Shown here: positions 23,727 to 59,302 of the stretch, piece after piece
Layout of the letters: each line of letters begins with the position of its first letter
How positions within the stretch are numbered: the first letter of the stretch is position 1
Notes under the pieces: generated by a model
The model's database searches: none
What the model saw: only the letters and a program-made list of their open reading frames with translations
What the model was told of the DNA's origin: nothing
Assembly: GCA_965205215.1 (NCBI GenBank)
Contig: OZ242041.1
Span: 1,632,001 to 1,696,000, forward strand
Reading direction: 5' to 3'
Source: Nitrosopumilus sp.
GTDB taxonomy: Archaea > Thermoproteota > Nitrososphaeria > Nitrososphaerales > Nitrosopumilaceae
DNA length: 64,000 nt
Program-made: the position numbers and the translations under genes

Positions 23727-25377
23727 GTATAGACTCAGGTCGCCACGTCTCATGATTCGAGCATATGTGAAGGACCGTCTCAGCATGTGGCGGCGACAGA
23801 GGGCACCGCCGTTGTAGCCTGTACCAGCCGTTCGACGCGCTCCGGGCAGTCGGGCGGTTTGAATATGCGCCAGTCAGGATCCTCGATCATGCGCTCCACC
23901 GCCATACGCGGGAACACACCCATCTTCTGGCACGTGCGCGCGACGGACACCAGCACGGAGAACACGTGGCGCCCGTCGGGTTCTGACAGCTGGTGGCGCA
24001 CGTTGCGGTGCAGCACGACGGTATCGCGTATTTCCAGCTCGGCGGCGTTGTTATGGGGCGGCATGCCCGGACATCTGAGGAACGTGAACAGGTGCGGGGC
24101 GGCGTTCTCCAGCGTCTCGCGGAACCCGTGACCCTTTTTGTAGCCCGACGCTATGCGCAGCACGGCCCTCTCCAGGTTTAGGCACTCGGCGCCGTCCGCC
24201 GACTCGCGGCTTTTGATCCTCCGGTACATGGAGAGCAGCCTGCGGTAGCACGACAGGTCGTCCCCGCCGTTTCTCACGGCGTATTTCTCGGCCTCGCGCA
24301 GTATGTGGGCCCAGCAGCGCTGCCTGACCGGGAGCATGCCGTACGCGACATATCCGTCCGTGACGGCCGGCATGCCCAGCAGGCCGCCAAAGTGCAGCTC
24401 CAGTACGGCCGCGGCCCTGCTCGGGGCCGCCACGATATACGTGGCGTCCCCTGTAGTCGCCAGCCATACGTACCCCCTCTTGCCGTTCATCCTGATAACC
24501 GACTCGTCGAACTGGACGAACGCGGCGCGCGAGATCCTCTCTAGGATGCCGTCGTACGCGGCCCCGAGCAGGTTCCTTATCGCCCTGCGCGCGTTCCAGA
24601 CCGCGTTTGCGGACACCGAAAAGCCGTAGAGCGCCCGGAAATAGTACGATATGGTCGAGTCAGTCGACCTCTTGGCGTAGTATTCGAGTATGAACCCTAG
24701 GGCCCTCGGGCCGAACGACGTGCCGGGCGGCAGGGGAGCCGGGGCGGTGCTGACCGCGCTGCACCTCCTGCAGAATCCGCGCTCGAGCACGTACGCGACC
24801 GTCTCGATGCACCTGCTGCTTTCATCCGGAAAGTCGTTTACGATTCTCGTGACGGGGGCCGCGTACGCGAGGTGGCCACGCCCACAGTTCCGGCACCGGT
24901 ACAGGCGCATGCGCTCCCTCCTCGAGGGCCTGTTACCGTGGGACGCGCCCTCGTGCCCCTCCGGAGGCCCGCTGCGCCTGCCCGCCGCGCTTTCTTTCGG
25001 TTCAGGTCCGCCCCCGTCCCCCTCCTCTTCTGCCAGCCTCTTCCGGAACGCGTCGCGCTCCGCGTTGTATATGGAACCCGTGGAGGACGGCGCGTTCGGG
25101 CTCTCGTATTTGGCCAGCCTCCTGTCCTGCTCTGCAATAGTCTCCATAAGCAGGTCTATCTGCTCCTCAAGGCCGGCCCTTATCCTGTCACGCTCGGCCT
25201 CCACCCGGGCGACTGCATCCTGCAGCCTCTTGATCTCCGCCATCATCTTGGCCATCTCCCGACGCAGCAGTGCCGTCTCGGAATCGCCCATGGACAATTT
25301 GCAGAATATATGATCTATAAGCTTGTCGGCCTGCCAGAGTTGCCAACAGGGTCACAGGCATGGACGTGAGTCCATAC
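23727..25377 (-). mobile_element. IS66-family insertion sequence, single-ORF (ISBst12-like), 1651 bp
   Basis: Imperfect TIRs GTATAGACTCAGGTC and GTATGGACTCACGTC; perfect 8-bp TSD ATGCACGA at 23719-23726 and 25378-25385. Confidence 0.93.
23780..25297 (-). CDS. IS66-family DDE transposase
   Basis: Coiled coil, CRNCG/CRRC zinc ribbon, FDES, TDGY..Y, QRCWAHILR, NNAAE..IR. Confidence 0.93.
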   Translation of the reverse strand: MSMGDSETALLRREMAKMMAEIKRLQDAVARVEAERDRIRAGLEEQIDLLMETIAEQDRRLAKYESPNAPSSTGSIYNAERDAFRKRLAEEEGDGGGPEPKESAAGRRSGPPEGHEGASHGNRPSRRERMRLYRCRNCGRGHLAYAAPVTRIVNDFPDESSRCIETVAYVLERGFCRRCSAVSTAPAPLPPGTSFGPRALGFILEYYAKRSTDSTISYYFRALYGFSVSANAVWNARRAIRNLLGAAYDGILERISRAAFVQFDESVIRMNGKRGYVWLATTGDATYIVAAPSRAAAVLELHFGGLLGMPAVTDGYVAYGMLPVRQRCWAHILREAEKYAVRNGGDDLSCYRRLLSMYRRIKSRESADGAECLNLERAVLRIASGYKKGHGFRETLENAAPHLFTFLRCPGMPPHNNAAELEIRDTVVLHRNVRHQLSEPDGRHVFSVLVSVARTCQKMGVFPRMAVERMIEDPDWRIFKPPDCPERVERLVQATTAVPSVAATC

Positions 25378-28007: not shown

Positions 28008-28288
28008 GTGTGAGCTGAAGCGCGAACGCTGCCACGGCAGAGGAAACTCCTCCCTCCATACAGGGGTGCGATCCGGAGATGGATAGTCGGAGACGGCTGG
28101 CAACGGAGCAGAAAATGATCCAACATGGGGCACTGTGATGGCAGACCCTGAGGTTCCCATGAACGGAATGAAAGAAGCCGACCCGCACGGAGAAAGGCCA
28201 AACAGAGCTGCAGGACCTGTACCAGGCTCAGGTGGGCCGCAAAGCGAAATGTCGCGAGAACAGAAGGAGGGTTACTCTCAGCACACAC
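28008..28288 (+). ncRNA. rnpB: RNase P RNA (archaeal)
   Basis: Conserved P4 halves GAGGAAACTCCTCCC and AACAGAAGGAGGGTTAC; terminal P1 pairing GTGTGAGCTGA/TCAGCACACAC; TATA-like ATTATA at about 27981. Confidence 0.9.
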
Positions 28289-28394
28289 CAACAAGACGTC
28301 CGCCAGGCGCCGTCGCTGCCAAACCCGCGCCCCAAGCGGCGGCGAAAAAGGCCGGCTTTGTACACAACCGCGGGGCAACAGGCCGGCCGCAGTA

Positions 28395-29771
28395 TCATCT
28401 CATGCTCTCGGACATCTCTTTGCAGAGAACGGCACCGCACGGGCACGTGTGGTCGCAGATGCACGAGTCCTGCATCTGGCAGTCGCACTCGGAGCTCATC
28501 TCGACTGACGCGGCGCATCCGCACGTGGCATCCTCCGCCGCTATCGCGGGGGGTGCCGAGCTGGGCTCACTCTGCTGCTGCTGCTGCGGCTGTTCCTGCT
28601 CGTAATGGCTGCGCGTCATTTGATAGTCCACGTCACCCTTTAGCTGGGCCTCGCCCCTGTTTGTCTGGTATCCCCCGGACGCCGAGCTGGTCTGGTATCC
28701 CACGAGATGGGTAGGGTCTATCCCCTGCTGGCCCTGCTTTTCGTTCTTTAGTGCGCGATTACTGACAAAAAAGAACGCAATGCCCGCGACGGCGGCCATT
28801 CCGGCCATGCCATATATGATCATTATTGGAAAGTCGCCCGTGGCCGTAGTGCTAGGTGCAGTAGACGTCACGCCTGCAATTTCAACTCCTTCAAGGATGT
28901 CAATGACACCGTACCCGATTATGTTCAGGTTGCCCTGGTCGGGGGACTGTATGCTCTTTACCACATATTCTTGATCAACCATTATGATCTCTTCCTCGAT
29001 TCGTTCGACCTGCCTTCCCTGCTGAAGGTTGCTCTCGCCCATGGTCCAGCTCGACTTTACAAAGCCCGATATCTCATCGCCTAGTCCGAAGGTTCCAGCG
29101 TCGACGTTGATTCCAGTCGGGTCGAACAGAAAGTGCCAGTTCTCAAGCGGCTGTTCCAAGACAAAGTCGGCATTAATCAGATACTCGTCGAATATGCGCT
29201 CGCCGGCGGTTCCGGATATCGTGTCCCGCGTCACTGGCAGGTTGTCCGCTACAAACGTAAACGGATCGTTGATCTCCTGGCCGTCAATCATGACGCTGCC
29301 GTCGACTGAGAGCCCCCTCCAGCCCAGATCAACGAGTGTCTTCTGGGAGTCCTGCGTAATTACATAGTTCACAAGCTCCCCAACCAGAATAATCTTGTAG
29401 TCTAACGACGCGCGCTCATCACCGCCGTAGAGTGCGAACGTATAGTCCACCTCCATGTCGGATATGCTGACCTGGCTGCCGCTCTGAAGTATGGCCGTGT
29501 TGAGCCTATCGATTAGAGACTGCACATCAGGATGGCTGGAATCATACTGGCCCGATATGGTAATGTCGTTTCCTCGCAGCTCGTCGACCAGCACTCCGCC
29601 ATCCTCGTACCATATGTGAATGGTTTTCAGATAGCTCATCTTAAAGGGCGAGGTATCTGCAGTCGGGATTATGGTAGCGTCAAGTTGGGCGGCCCACGAG
29701 TCGGAGGCGCCTCCTCCAAGAGCGAGCAGGCCGGCGGCGGCAAGACCCGCCACAAGAAATACTCTATTCAT
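28395..29771 (-). CDS. Single-pass cell-surface protein with acidic ectodomain and cytoplasmic metallothionein-like Cys-rich tail
   Basis: Signal peptide; TM IMIIYGMAGMAAVAGIAFFFV followed by basic residues; tail CGC-x9-CDC-x5-CIC-x3-CPC-x4-C. Confidence 0.85.
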   Translation of the reverse strand: MNRVFLVAGLAAAGLLALGGGASDSWAAQLDATIIPTADTSPFKMSYLKTIHIWYEDGGVLVDELRGNDITISGQYDSSHPDVQSLIDRLNTAILQSGSQVSISDMEVDYTFALYGGDERASLDYKIILVGELVNYVITQDSQKTLVDLGWRGLSVDGSVMIDGQEINDPFTFVADNLPVTRDTISGTAGERIFDEYLINADFVLEQPLENWHFLFDPTGINVDAGTFGLGDEISGFVKSSWTMGESNLQQGRQVERIEEEIIMVDQEYVVKSIQSPDQGNLNIIGYGVIDILEGVEIAGVTSTAPSTTATGDFPIMIIYGMAGMAAVAGIAFFFVSNRALKNEKQGQQGIDPTHLVGYQTSSASGGYQTNRGEAQLKGDVDYQMTRSHYEQEQPQQQQQSEPSSAPPAIAAEDATCGCAASVEMSSECDCQMQDSCICDHTCPCGAVLCKEMSESMR

Positions 29772-30778
29772 ATGATACGATTGGCATAAATAGAGTAATA
29801 AATCTATCTTGCAAAATAAAGCCCGGGCTCAGGCCCCTTGAAAATTCGTGCCTGCCGGCTTCCGTCTTATTCAGATTTCACGGGGTGGGTGCGCGGGCCC
29901 ATACAAGGCAAAGACGACGGTATCGTCCCGCAGTTTCGACGAGCAGGCATCCAACGAGACAGGCGGGATCCCACCGCGCGAGATGGATTTGCCGACAGGT
30001 TTTGGATTTACGCGAGTCGGACAGGCAGGCAGCCCCGCCAAGCACCCTCCGAGACGGCCGGTGCGTGACGGCCCCGCATAGATGCGGGGGACACATTATC
30101 TCGCCGCGACGCCGCATGTCAGGAATGTGGAGAGTCCGGCTGCGGCAGGGATCCGCGAACGGCCGCGGCCAAGCCGGCTTCCAGAAAACGGCGGGGGTGT
30201 TTTGGACGGGCCGGAGTATGGTGCGAGGTCCGCGGCCCATGCCCGCCAAGCTGCCGGCGGACCGGGGAACCTGAAGGGAGAGGGAGCGAATATCGGCAGG
30301 CGGCCAACATGAAAAGGAGGGGAGCGCGGTCGCGCAAGGCCGGCCAAGGCGGGCGCGCGCCGCGGCAAAGAAACGTCTGTCGCCGGCCGCGCAAACTCAA
30401 TCCTGCAGCACGCTGTCAGGCTTTGCGAATTGCAGCCCCTCCGTGTCCGGTCCCCGGGCCAGACGCGACATGAGGTAGTGTGTTTTTTGTCCCGCTGTTT
30501 TTCGCGCGCACGCGCGAAAATGGAGGGAGTCGCGGCACGTACGTCGACTTGATCCTCCCACGTCTTTTGCGTTCTTTGCTGCGTCTCTTTTGGAGATGTG
30601 TTGGCGCAACGGCCCACACGATCAAGGCGGCTTGCAATCATGACGCGTCGTGATCTTTAAACCTCCACGACATCGGAAAGGCGACGGGCGGCTCCGTTCT
30701 TGCGCGTGTCTTGTGCATGCAATTTCCAAAACTAAATATGGAGCAGAGCCGACGTAGCCTGCATAGTTTTGGAGGAAG

Positions 30779-31708
30779 ATGGCTGACGTGATAACGGTAC
30801 TTGCGGGCGGTACGGGCTCTGTGAAGATGGTCAGGGGGCTGGCAGCTCAGGAATCCAAGGTCAACGTGATAAGTAACGTCGGCGACAACTACTGGTTGTA
30901 CGGGCTGTATGTCTGCCCCGACATTGACACCATAATGTACGGCCTGGCAGACCTGCTCGACCAAGAGAAGGGATGGGGGGTCAAAAAGGACACGTTTAAC
31001 TTTCTGCGACAGATGGAGGTGTTCGGCGAGGAGACGTGGTTTAGGATGGGCGACAGGGACGCGGCAACCCATCTGATCAGAACCAACATGCTCAAGAACG
31101 GAAAGAACCTAACGGACATTACAAAGTGGATGTGCGAAAGGTTTGCAGTGGGCGTCAACATAATTCCCGTCACGGACAACACCATAGAGACCAGGATAAG
31201 TACGAGCAAGGGCGAGATGCACCTCCAGGAATACTGGGTCAAGTACAGGGGGCGCGACGAGGTCGAGGGCATACAGTATATCGGCGCAGAAAAGGCGCGT
31301 CCAAACCCAGAGGCAGTCAACGCGATACAGAATTCAAAGCTCGTGATACTCGCCCCCGGAAACCCGCTCACGTCAATAGGCCCCATGTTGCAGATAAAGG
31401 GGATAAAAAAGGAGCTCGCAAGGGCAAAGAAAAAGGTGGTCGCCATAAGCCCGCTGATTGGCGACAGCTCCATAACCGGACCGGCCGCAAAGTACATGAA
31501 GGCGGCAGGAATCGAGTCCAACGCGTACGGGCTTGCAAAGATGTACTCGGACGTATGCTCCAACATTGTAATAGACACAAAGGACAGGGCGCTTGCAAAA
31601 AAGATACGCAGCCTGGACATGAGCGTATACGAGACGAAGATCACCATGAAGAACAAGGCCGCAGAGGAGGCGCTAGCCAGCTTTGTCACAAAGCAGGTAC
31701 ACGCGTGA
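30779..31708 (+). CDS. cofD: 2-phospho-L-lactate transferase
   Basis: LAGGTGSVK, NVGDN, CPDIDT, WFRMGDRD, HLQEYWV. Confidence 0.95.
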   Translation: MADVITVLAGGTGSVKMVRGLAAQESKVNVISNVGDNYWLYGLYVCPDIDTIMYGLADLLDQEKGWGVKKDTFNFLRQMEVFGEETWFRMGDRDAATHLIRTNMLKNGKNLTDITKWMCERFAVGVNIIPVTDNTIETRISTSKGEMHLQEYWVKYRGRDEVEGIQYIGAEKARPNPEAVNAIQNSKLVILAPGNPLTSIGPMLQIKGIKKELARAKKKVVAISPLIGDSSITGPAAKYMKAAGIESNAYGLAKMYSDVCSNIVIDTKDRALAKKIRSLDMSVYETKITMKNKAAEEALASFVTKQVHA

Positions 31709-31772: not shown

Positions 31773-32444
31773 TTGAGGACAGCGGCAATAATACCAGTCA
31801 AGAGATTCGAGGGGGCAAAGACGCGCCTCGGGCTTGGCGCTTCAGAGGTGGCAGAACTGTGCGGGGTGATGCTAAGGGAGATCATAGGCGTTGTATCCAC
31901 ATCCAGCCACATAGACCACACGTTTGTAGTGACCAGGGATCCAGAGGCCGAGAGGATGGTCGCAGAGTTCGGGAGCAGGTCAGGGAAAGGAGGCGGCCCA
32001 GTCATAACGGCCATACGCGACGAGCACGAGAGGGGCGTCAACGAGGCAGTAGCACTGGCAGACAGGCGCATCATGCAAGACGGATACGACGCGTCCATAG
32101 TCATGCCGCAGGACATACCATACATCAAGGCGCAGGACATTGACTTTATGATGAGGTTTGCAGCGCCGCCCAACTTTGCAGTCGTCGTACCGTCGAGGAA
32201 GTTTGACGGCACCAACGCCCTCGTAAGGATGCCAGCCGATCTGATGGGAACGCACTACGACAACAACAGCTACAGGGAGCACGTCAGGATGGCAGGCGAG
32301 TGCACGAGAAATGTGGCCCCTGTGTTCGTGAGGAGGATAATGATGGACATAGATACAATGGACGACCTGAGGTTCCTGCTTGCAAACAGCGGCGAAAAAC
32401 CGCACGTCGCAGTCCAGATAGAGCGCATAGCAGGCAGGGGATAG
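31773..32444 (+). CDS. cofC: 2-phospho-L-lactate guanylyltransferase
   Basis: IIPVK...AKTRL, DIP, GTNAL, DIDT.DDL. Confidence 0.92.
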   Translation: MRTAAIIPVKRFEGAKTRLGLGASEVAELCGVMLREIIGVVSTSSHIDHTFVVTRDPEAERMVAEFGSRSGKGGGPVITAIRDEHERGVNEAVALADRRIMQDGYDASIVMPQDIPYIKAQDIDFMMRFAAPPNFAVVVPSRKFDGTNALVRMPADLMGTHYDNNSYREHVRMAGECTRNVAPVFVRRIMMDIDTMDDLRFLLANSGEKPHVAVQIERIAGRG

Positions 32445-42933: not shown

Positions 42934-43404
42934 TCAAGAAGAGGCGGCGCCGTCAAAGTCGTCTAGGATCTGGCTTGCATGTCCCGTCGGCTTTACCTTT
43001 GTATATGCTTTGAATATGATCCCGTCCTCTCCTACGAGAAACGAGCTCCTTATCACCCCTTCGCGCTCTTTGTCCCCGACCTTTTTCATGCCCCACACCC
43101 CGAACATTTTGGCCACCGCATGCTGCGTATCTGCCATCAGAACGTATTGGATTTTCTTCCTTTCACGGAAATTTTCATGCGACTCGACGCTGTCTGGACT
43201 GATCCCGATAACCTCTATGTCGCGGCGCCGGTATTCATCATATAGATTTCCAAACTCGTCGGCCTGGATGGTGCAACCCGGCGTAAAGTCCTTTGGGTAA
43301 AAATAGATCACATGCTTCTTGCCTGCAAAATCCTTGGAGCTTTTGAGCGTCCCCGGAGAATCCGGGAGTTCAAAGGACGGTACCGCGTCCCCTTCACTTA
43401 TCAT
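42934..43404 (-). CDS. bcp: Peroxiredoxin, BCP/PrxQ family (island copy)
   Basis: YFYPKDFTPGCT, GISPDS, RSSFLV. Confidence 0.92.
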   Translation of the reverse strand: MISEGDAVPSFELPDSPGTLKSSKDFAGKKHVIYFYPKDFTPGCTIQADEFGNLYDEYRRRDIEVIGISPDSVESHENFRERKKIQYVLMADTQHAVAKMFGVWGMKKVGDKEREGVIRSSFLVGEDGIIFKAYTKVKPTGHASQILDDFDGAASS

Positions 43405-43756: not shown

Positions 43757-43778
43757 CATGCCAAATGCAAACACATGC

Positions 43779-43907
43779 ATGGCAGACTCATGTGCCGAAC
43801 AAATCGCGGCTAACAGCGAATGTAACTGCGCACCAAAGACCGAATGCGGTTGTGACTCGACAGCGTGTGAATGCGCTACAGAAATCTGCGTGACTGCAAG
43901 AGGATAG
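43779..43907 (+). CDS. Metallothionein-like protein, 42 aa (MADSCAEQIAANSECNCAPKTECGCDSTACECATEICVTARG)
   Basis: Manual translation; 8 Cys including three CxC pairs; promoter and poly-T terminator; two homologs in the window. Confidence 0.8.
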   Translation: MADSCAEQIAANSECNCAPKTECGCDSTACECATEICVTARG

Positions 43908-57832: not shown

Positions 57833-57967
57833 CTAGTGCTCTGTGCTCTTGCAGGGATCACCACTGCAATCACATGTTGAATCACAGTAGCATTCGCTCT
57901 GCATCGAGCAGTCACATTCTGTGTTGTTTTCCGCTTGCGCGGCACAACCGCATGCTGCATCCGACAT
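57833..57967 (-). CDS. Metallothionein-like protein, 44 aa (MSDAACGCAAQAENNTECDCSMQSECYCDSTCDCSGDPCKSTEH)
   Basis: Manual translation; 9 Cys with four CxC pairs; TATA and terminator; Cys spacing identical to the tail of 28395-29771. Confidence 0.85.
   Translation of the reverse strand: MSDAACGCAAQAENNTECDCSMQSECYCDSTCDCSGDPCKSTEH

Positions 57968-58111: not shown

Positions 58112-59302
<1,191 letters not shown>

Follow-up and report, generated by a model that had tools for sequence, protein, structure and literature searches.

Among the described systems that come closest to the one treated here are the metallothioneins, with the vertebrate MT beta-domain (PF00131) and the bacterial SmtA/BmtA as representatives, which are small proteins with about 20–23 % cysteine and with CxC pairs; in the vertebrate beta-domain nine cysteines form an M3S9 cluster. 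Nine cysteines within about 35 CxC-rich residues are also found in the Zn3Cys9 domains of eukaryotic nuclear proteins, i.e. the pre-SET domain of the SUV39 type and the CXC domain of MSL2, EZH2 and Tesmin. At the membrane, yeast Ctr1 has a cysteine-rich C-terminus that faces the cytosol and binds Cu(I), and Csp1/Csp3 of the methanotrophs serve as a cytosolic copper store in organisms with a copper monooxygenase. The present analysis deals with a further nine-cysteine domain, here called Cys9, which forms the C-terminal tail of a 458-amino-acid (aa) membrane protein encoded in a stretch of 64,000 nucleotides from Nitrosopumilus sp. (assembly GCA_965205215.1, contig OZ242041.1, positions 1,632,001 to 1,696,000; hereafter the window). 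Nitrosopumilaceae ammonia oxidizers are among the most abundant marine microbes and rely heavily on copper proteins, and to our knowledge the intracellular handling of copper and zinc in ammonia-oxidizing archaea is poorly known. As judged from sequence comparison, the domain is a new module restricted to this family and without detectable relation to known metal-binding families. The best explanation for the tail, which stands about as good a chance of being right as of being wrong, is a membrane-tethered, metal-dependent docking or hand-off module at the inner face of the membrane, built around a putative metal-thiolate cluster and captured from a free gene.

Architecture and topology of the membrane protein

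The open reading frame (ORF) of the protein (P0001) is uninterrupted; its position and those of the other features are collected in Table 1. A sequence-only reading of the window had described a signal peptide, an acidic ectodomain, one transmembrane (TM) helix, a Q/P-rich linker and a nine-cysteine end, and this architecture was confirmed in every detail; the element marked there, 28395..28535, is aa 413–458 plus the stop codon. By hydropathy two hydrophobic segments stand out, aa 1–23 and 314–337. The residues W26, A27, A28, Q29 and L30 at the end of the signal peptide (SWA/AQL) are invariant in an alignment of 21 homologues. The ectodomain of 285 aa (46 D+E versus 14 K+R) is followed by the TM helix FPIMIIYGMAGMAAVAGIAFFFVS and then by NRALKNEK. 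Behind it lies a linker with many invariant columns in the homologue alignments, which is missing in the orthologues of the families f2 and f3 and differs in the genera g14 and g8 (genera and families are given by code), and finally the Q/P-rich spacer, the length of which differs among the homologues.

All cysteines of the protein are located in the tail (positions 417, 419, 429, 431, 437, 439, 443, 445 and 450), where they amount to 23 % and lie within 34 residues as four CxC pairs and one more. The binomial probability of at least nine Cys per 39 residues is 1.6e-10 at 1 % Cys and 6e-8 at 2 % Cys. The tail is acidic (9 D+E versus 2 K+R) and contains one His and no F, Y or W; many free copies of the domain have one Tyr or Phe between the cysteines. 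Among 8000 scored candidates 2456 homologues of the protein were found at E ≤ 1e-3, every named one being termed "hypothetical", and the best 120 homologues show 57–97 % identity.

The protein is predicted to be a type I single-pass protein (N-out, C-in) with a cytoplasmic tail. This topology was derived from hydropathy, charge counts and the ends of the orthologues, together with the helix in the AF2 model; the signal peptide, the one TM helix and the positive cytoplasmic flank of type I membrane proteins are all present by hydropathy and charge. A cytoplasmic tail is favoured because the signal peptide is combined with a single TM helix that has K/R on its C-terminal side, and because the orthologues of two further families stop right after the helix (..LLKARKK, ..RANRK). 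The free paralogues lack a signal peptide and start with a Met four or five residues ahead of the first Cys, the ectodomain is devoid of Cys and the orthologues of f2 and f3, two families of the same order, terminate in K/R right behind the TM helix, so that a reducing compartment is to be expected for the domain. The cytoplasmic Cys cluster proposed in the sequence-only reading is thereby supported by the K/R after the helix, the orthologue ends and the signal-less paralogues alike.

Conservation and distribution of the nine-cysteine domain

The tail is conserved and under purifying selection. The full set of nine Cys is present in 17 of 21 aligned homologues, and 70 of 80 species-representative loci, fetched with P0013 as query, possess the complete pattern (in two further loci a contig end cuts the domain). 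For 64 species loci of equal domain length the ratio of nonsynonymous to synonymous substitution rates (dN/dS) is 0.16 over all codons of the domain and 0.245 over the non-Cys codons, figures which are descriptive as the pairs are non-independent; for the linker, 55 codons around the GGYQT motif gave 0.20. When 30 domains, fused as well as free, are aligned, the nine Cys, one G, one D and one Q are invariant and there is a single indel of one residue, the joint signature being C-G-C-x10/11-C-D-C-x2-Q-x2-C-x-C-x3-C-x-C-x4-C.

The survey of genomes comprised 150 genomes across the class and the window's own genome. In Nitrosopumilaceae the domain profile matched 80 of 80 genomes and 17 of 17 genera (79/79 genomes without the unpublished G132 of genus g14, which is included in the family tallies), and none of the 70 genomes from 11 other families of the class. 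The free form, i.e. a match in a short open frame of 44–97 aa, exists in all 80 family genomes, and the free protein has a length of 44–56 aa. The fused form, with the match at the end of a 455–527-aa frame, was found in 52/80 genomes and 9/17 genera (g1 31/33, g4 7/8, g6 3/3, g7 2/2, g11 2/2, g12 3/3, g13 2/2, g15 1/1, g10 1/4), including most Nitrosopumilus- and Nitrosarchaeum-type genomes; it occurs in none of the genera g2 (nine genomes), g14 (seven), g3, g5, g8, g9, g16 and g17 (one each). The window's genome has four matches to the domain and five others have three. The ectodomain-TM part (aa 1–384) is present in 80/80 genomes of the family and in all those searched from two more families of the order (3/3 each), and none of the other 64 genomes of the class has it. 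The order holds the ammonia-oxidizing archaea, and the host membrane protein looks specific to ammonia oxidizers.

Relation to known families and folds

A Pfam search with the whole protein returned DUF7412 only (E 0.17) and NCBIfam returned nothing. For the tail and the two free copies of the window no Pfam family was found at E ≤ 10, CXC and pre-SET included. In a Pfam scan of 30 domain members none reached the cut-off, with sub-threshold matches to PF00131 in 4/30 (best E 0.018). A profile of 30 members gave no match to PDB sequences at E ≤ 10, and the whole protein matched low-complexity polyQ sequences of the PDB only, plus MT-1A at E 5.9. Just 24 of 1.84 billion representative proteins were matched by the hidden Markov model (HMM) of the domain at E ≤ 1e-3: free forms, pieces of the fused protein, and the proteins P0135 and P0147. 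P0135 (129 aa) is hydrophobic in its N-terminal part and ends in the nine-Cys domain, and P0147 (103 aa) begins with it. The designation "metallothionein-like" given to the domain in the sequence-only reading is therefore appropriate for its composition (23 % Cys, CxC pairs) but not in the sense of family membership, as no Pfam threshold was reached and no PDB match obtained; it is used here as a compositional statement only. A limited collection of literature on Nitrosopumilus, Thaumarchaeota or ammonia-oxidizing archaea with metallothionein, copper or cysteine-rich proteins contained no paper on the domain or the protein, and a passage of PMC12153309 was set aside as an unrelated reference.

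The structure prediction and fold search of the ectodomain that had been suggested resulted in a confident AF2 model (pLDDT >90 over most of aa 30–210 and 260–300) and in no convincing fold neighbour: Foldseek found no match at E ≤ 1e-3, the best Z of VIA was 5.0, which is under the usual noise level, and the ESM Atlas contributed only unnamed Nitrososphaerota clusters (0.80–0.81). The pLDDT is below 50 for the entire cytoplasmic part, with 29–39 for the tail in the full-length model, and reaches a mean of 60.8 for the tail alone (30 sequences), a value at which the empty Foldseek result for this model says little. The lack of a confident autonomous fold would be expected if folding needs metal, and is no proof of it.

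Free copies of the domain and origin of the fusion

The stand-alone genes mentioned in the sequence-only reading exist; in the window they encode 44 and 49 aa. A common arrangement of a gene of ~294 aa, the free gene, a ~490-aa secreted protein and a TPR protein is shared by 13 of 17 loci (16 genus codes). This synteny was judged by ORF size and orientation, and homology was checked in the window's genome and, among the 490-aa proteins, for one pair. The 44-aa gene is regarded as the family-wide orthologue because it still lies directly after the homologue of the 294-aa gene in the window. For the ~294-aa neighbour itself neither Pfam nor PDB gave a match, and the Atlas provided leads only (DUF4037 and nucleotidyltransferase-like clusters). 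The ~490-aa protein (loci L022–L037) has a plastocyanin-like end in the genera g14 and g16, and the Nitrosopumilus type ends in repeated units of ..WIKNNAGWWA.G.I.D..F..GIQFLI..GI.., which recur at many places of the window's genome.

The 49-aa copy and a fusion of the domain with another ORF are extra, lineage-specific copies. In this fourth genomic copy the Cys9 domain is found at the N-terminus of a 236-aa ORF (C1:664184.., locus L002 1501..2211, plus strand). Four further Cys and one His come soon after the domain, followed by a Q/E/R-rich region, and the ORF has no Pfam match; this N-terminal fusion apparently exists only in the window's genome among the 151 searched.

An unrooted tree of the domain (55 sequences, 47 columns) places the 22 fused tails together on one side of a branch with a support of 92/81, which is present in 93 % of the bootstrap trees. 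The comparison of fused and free domains by phylogeny, as had been recommended, hence leads to one group of fused tails. The idea that the fused gene might be the ancestral source from which the free genes split off is not supported by the distribution, since free genes exist in 80/80 genomes and 17/17 genera, mostly at one site, and fused genes in 52/80 and 9/17. A single capture from a free gene is suggested instead, because the free gene is more widespread and syntenic, the deepest-branching genera have no fusion and the fused tails form one group; the tail is thus likely to have been captured, probably once, from a copy of the free gene.

In the ectodomain tree (40 rows, quick search) the tail states are intermixed. 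The Cys9 state changes seven times on the best tree, and at least four changes are forced by well-supported branches. The tails of L014 (genus g10) and P0134 nest inside the Nitrosopumilus-type tails with a support of 98/93, and their ectodomains branch elsewhere. This discordance, a thin signal, hints at an exchange of the 3′ end by recombination.

The C-terminal slot

Seen across the orthologues, the C-terminal end appears to behave as an exchangeable slot, which may hold the Cys9 domain, a PKG[WF] motif, another domain or nothing. The end RGS[LM]PKG[WF], sometimes doubled, is present in orthologues of the genera g2, g5, g9, g10, g17 and g3, in one of g4 and in 3/80 species loci. Two genomes of the window's genus and 2/80 loci (L019, L020, L067, L092) possess an unrelated C-terminal domain of ~85 aa (..KMINV.I.V.NID...SCN) that has no Pfam match. 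Orthologues of g14 and g8 end in ..YEDRKHWADKFD.., and those elsewhere in the order often stop at the TM helix. The motif standing in for the Cys9 tail elsewhere is the same as the PKGF motif of two paralogous soluble proteins encoded in tandem in the window (350 and 302 aa). These proteins, for which no Pfam family was matched, contain AP/K-rich repeats with KGTLPKGF three to five times and end exactly in ..GTLPKGF. The end of the Cys9 tail, ...SM[SR], is similar to the beginning of the SMPKGW motif; this was judged to be a coincidence, as free type-B copies likewise end in ..SQM/SQL.

Possible function of the tail

The tail probably binds metal, to judge by its cysteines. According to the explanation preferred here, the nine invariant Cys would most likely fold around a metal-thiolate cluster, and nine thiolates would fit one M3Cys9-type Zn(II) cluster or a Cu(I) cluster. 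The tail would represent a tethered paralogue of the soluble 44–56-aa protein present in every searched Nitrosopumilaceae genome, a copy of the free gene having been captured, probably once, at the C-terminal end of an order-wide type I membrane protein. The module would act in metal-dependent docking or hand-off and not as a bulk metal store; docking or hand-off is favoured because the slot accepts a short motif, a domain or the Cys9 module. The results speak neither for nor against the receptor or tether suggested in the sequence-only reading.

Several points weigh against this proposal. The searches in Pfam, NCBIfam, PDB and Foldseek gave no sequence or fold link of the domain to known metal-binding families; metal binding is predicted from the Cys pattern, and the docking role is suggested by analogy with the other occupants of the slot, the partner being putative. 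The tail is acidic, which classical metallothioneins are not. A copper hint from the gene neighbourhood, a plastocyanin domain in the ~490-aa downstream neighbour of the free gene in two of eight loci tested, is too weak to count. The domain tree is limited by its 47 columns, and its branch for the fused group does not reach the star threshold. In some lineages, moreover, the tail is dispensable. It is missing from the close relatives P0013, P0014, P0015 and P0084 (4/10 in the window's clade), which stop before it; for P0013 the truncation was confirmed on DNA (L039), with a clean end and no remnant of the domain. In L041 and L042, two separate assemblies with ~91 % nucleotide identity to positions 28395–28755 of the window, an in-frame TGA is located between spacer and tail, with the nine Cys intact behind it, which is due either to a very recent truncation or to read-through.

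A true metallothionein function is unlikely; both the free protein and the tail would then serve as bulk buffers or stores for Cu(I) or Zn(II), and through the fusion part of this store would simply be placed at the membrane. The high Cys content with four CxC pairs and one more Cys in a tail free of aromatic residues would agree with such a role, as would the universal free form in a family with heavy dependence on copper enzymes, the extra copies of the domain in six genomes and the sub-threshold matches to PF00131. However, a store made up of one nine-Cys domain per single-pass protein is very small, and neither the spacing nor the residues G, D and Q vary among the 17 genera, which argues for one defined structure and not for a flexible chelator. 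Moreover, other lineages fill the same slot with a peptide motif or another domain, and no sequence homology to any metallothionein family was detected.

Quite unlikely is a structural Zn-cluster domain in which nine Cys hold three Zn, as in pre-SET and CXC domains, and which serves for binding of a protein or nucleic acid partner only. This reading is in line with the rigid spacing of the nine Cys and the invariant non-Cys residues, with the purifying selection at non-Cys codons and with a slot that is interchangeable with a linear motif, which also ends two coiled-coil proteins in the window. On the other hand, neither CXC nor pre-SET was matched in Pfam at E ≤ 10, AF2 yielded no confident fold even with 30 sequences and the partner is putative; it also overlaps with the docking or hand-off module, from which it differs only in whether the metal is exchanged.

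For a redox-active thiol switch or an Fe-S site sensing oxidative or nitrosative stress at the membrane, which is very unlikely, one could refer to the dense cytoplasmic cysteines, to the AhpC/TSA peroxiredoxin gene next to the divergent free copy and to a free copy of another genome adjoining an ArsC/glutaredoxin-like gene. Such neighbourhoods are lineage-specific, however, the conserved one contains no redox gene, no Fe-S family was matched and the CxC spacing is unusual for Fe-S ligation.

It is highly improbable that the tail is a dispensable appendage, i.e. a neutral or decaying fusion without a function of its own in a sponge-associated lineage: the tail-less homologues in the closest clade (4/10) and the TGA in two species loci would speak for decay, but the dN/dS of 0.16 over 64 species loci, the Cys being all intact even past the TGA, the uninterrupted ORF of the window and the retention of the tail across several genera speak against it. 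An extracellular, disulfide-bonded tail, named in the sequence-only reading as the case that would disprove it, is hardly conceivable, as nothing was found in its favour and the signal peptide with one TM helix and K/R past it, the orthologue ends in K/R right behind the helix, the signal-less free paralogues and the Cys-free ectodomain all oppose it.

Genomic context

Table 1 Positions of the features within the window (spans in nucleotides of the window; E, expectation value)
Feature	Position	Strand	Remarks
ORF of the type I membrane protein with nine-Cys cytoplasmic tail (predicted topology)	28395..29771	-	458 aa, P0001, uninterrupted
Signal peptide, aa 1–27 (..SWA/AQL)	29691..29771	-	hydropathy peak aa 1–23 and invariant residues
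Acidic ectodomain, aa 28–312, without Cys	28836..29690	-	charge counts, AF2
Single TM helix, aa 314–337	28761..28832	-	Kyte-Doolittle maximum 2.14; AF2 helix 316–343
Conserved cytoplasmic linker, aa 338–391	28599..28760	-	NRALKNEKQGQQGIDP..LVGYQTS..GGYQTNRGEAQL..DYQ.TRS.YE; alignment columns, dN/dS
Q/P-rich low-complexity spacer, aa 392–412	28536..28598	-	sequence
Nine-Cys tail domain, aa 413–458	28398..28535	-	C-G-C-x10-C-D-C-x2-Q-x2-C-x-C-x3-C-x-C-x4-C
Stop codon of the membrane-protein ORF	28395..28397	-	
Archaeal RNase P RNA	28010..28286	+	RF00373, 173 bits, E 5.5e-51
cofD (F420 biosynthesis)	30779..31708	+	divergent from the membrane-protein gene
cofC (F420 biosynthesis)	31773..32444	+	next to cofD
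IS66-family transposase ORF	23780..25297	-	505 aa, PF03050, E 3e-21
Free 44-aa paralogue, family-wide syntenic orthologue	57833..57967	-	just downstream of the homologue of the ~294-aa neighbour
Homologue of the ~294-aa conserved neighbour	about 58127–58930	-	
Divergent free 49-aa copy, nine Cys	43758..43907	+	first pair C-x4-C, not CGC; very long branch in domain tree
AhpC/TSA peroxiredoxin gene	42934..43404	-	adjoins the divergent 49-aa Cys9 copy
Paralogous soluble protein, 350 aa	48206..49258	-	coiled-coil-like N-terminus
Paralogous soluble protein, 302 aa	49663..50571	-	coiled-coil-like N-terminus

The adjacency of the membrane-protein gene to cofD and cofC recurs in loci of three families (L015, L005, L008 and L009; cofD only in L010, by Pfam), with no functional link to the membrane protein implied. 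The gap between cofD and the membrane-protein gene (29772..30778) measures 1007 bp, and that of the relatives roughly 80–180 bp. Apart from one 50-bp match with 86 % identity its sequence is unique in the genome; no Rfam match was obtained, and its ORF of 181 aa has no Pfam match. The 49-aa copy and the peroxiredoxin gene are found in an AT-richer, gene-poor stretch.

The RNase P RNA gene is convergent to the membrane-protein gene and lies ~110 bp downstream of its stop; two RNA libraries show a very high depth for it. The ORF of a close relative, with its complete tail, is covered by contigs of two sponge metatranscriptome libraries (X1 and X2, each from a different study), and one contig of 388 bases runs from the stop codon through the entire tail into the linker. 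The seven differences listed for the tail region of these contigs leave all Cys codons unchanged, and one contig has an in-frame insertion of three bases in the Q/P spacer. The contigs are weak evidence and do not prove transcription; the flanks 28255–28325 and 29817–30000 have no contig cover, which proves nothing and was not used.

Significance and comparison with known systems

The Cys9 protein, unannotated and present in 80/80 genomes of the family, and its tethered copy are concrete candidates for copper or zinc handling. In addition, the analysis defines an order-wide surface protein without a recognised fold, and the swappable cytoplasmic end hints at an undescribed interaction system at the inner face of the membrane. 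A bolder view, which has to be called doubtful, would regard the domain as the first metallothionein-like metal-thiolate family of Archaea, universal in and specific to the marine and freshwater Nitrosopumilaceae, with the fused form coupling an order-wide surface protein to cytoplasmic Cu/Zn handling. If it were true, the free protein and the tail would be the missing cytosolic Cu/Zn chaperone or buffer of copper-dependent ammonia oxidizers, and the TGA before an intact tail could mark a conditional read-through giving isoforms with and without the tail.

Among the known systems, the metallothioneins resemble the Cys9 domain in their small size, their Cys content and their CxC pairs, and the beta-domain also in the number of nine Cys; the absence of aromatic residues from the fused tail, though not from many of the free copies, and of a confident metal-free AF2 fold are further points of likeness. 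They differ in that no homology is detectable, and the Cys9 domain, known here from its sequence, is acidic, contains an invariant G, D and Q, is limited to one archaeal family and is fused to a membrane protein. The likeness to Ctr1 and Csp1/Csp3 is one of concept: like Ctr1, the host protein would expose a Cys-rich element to the cytosol, although it is single-pass and has no channel or transport domain, and with the Csp proteins the tail would share a possible cytosolic role in copper handling in a copper-dependent ammonia oxidizer, although these are four-helix bundles; no sequence relation was found. The Zn3Cys9 domains are eukaryotic and nuclear and were not matched in Pfam at E ≤ 10, and a like cluster type in the Cys9 domain would be suggested by the Cys count only. 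They are alike, however, in their nine Cys within a short CxC-rich segment, and as structural or docking modules they would fit well to an exchangeable slot such as the one the Cys9 tail appears to occupy.

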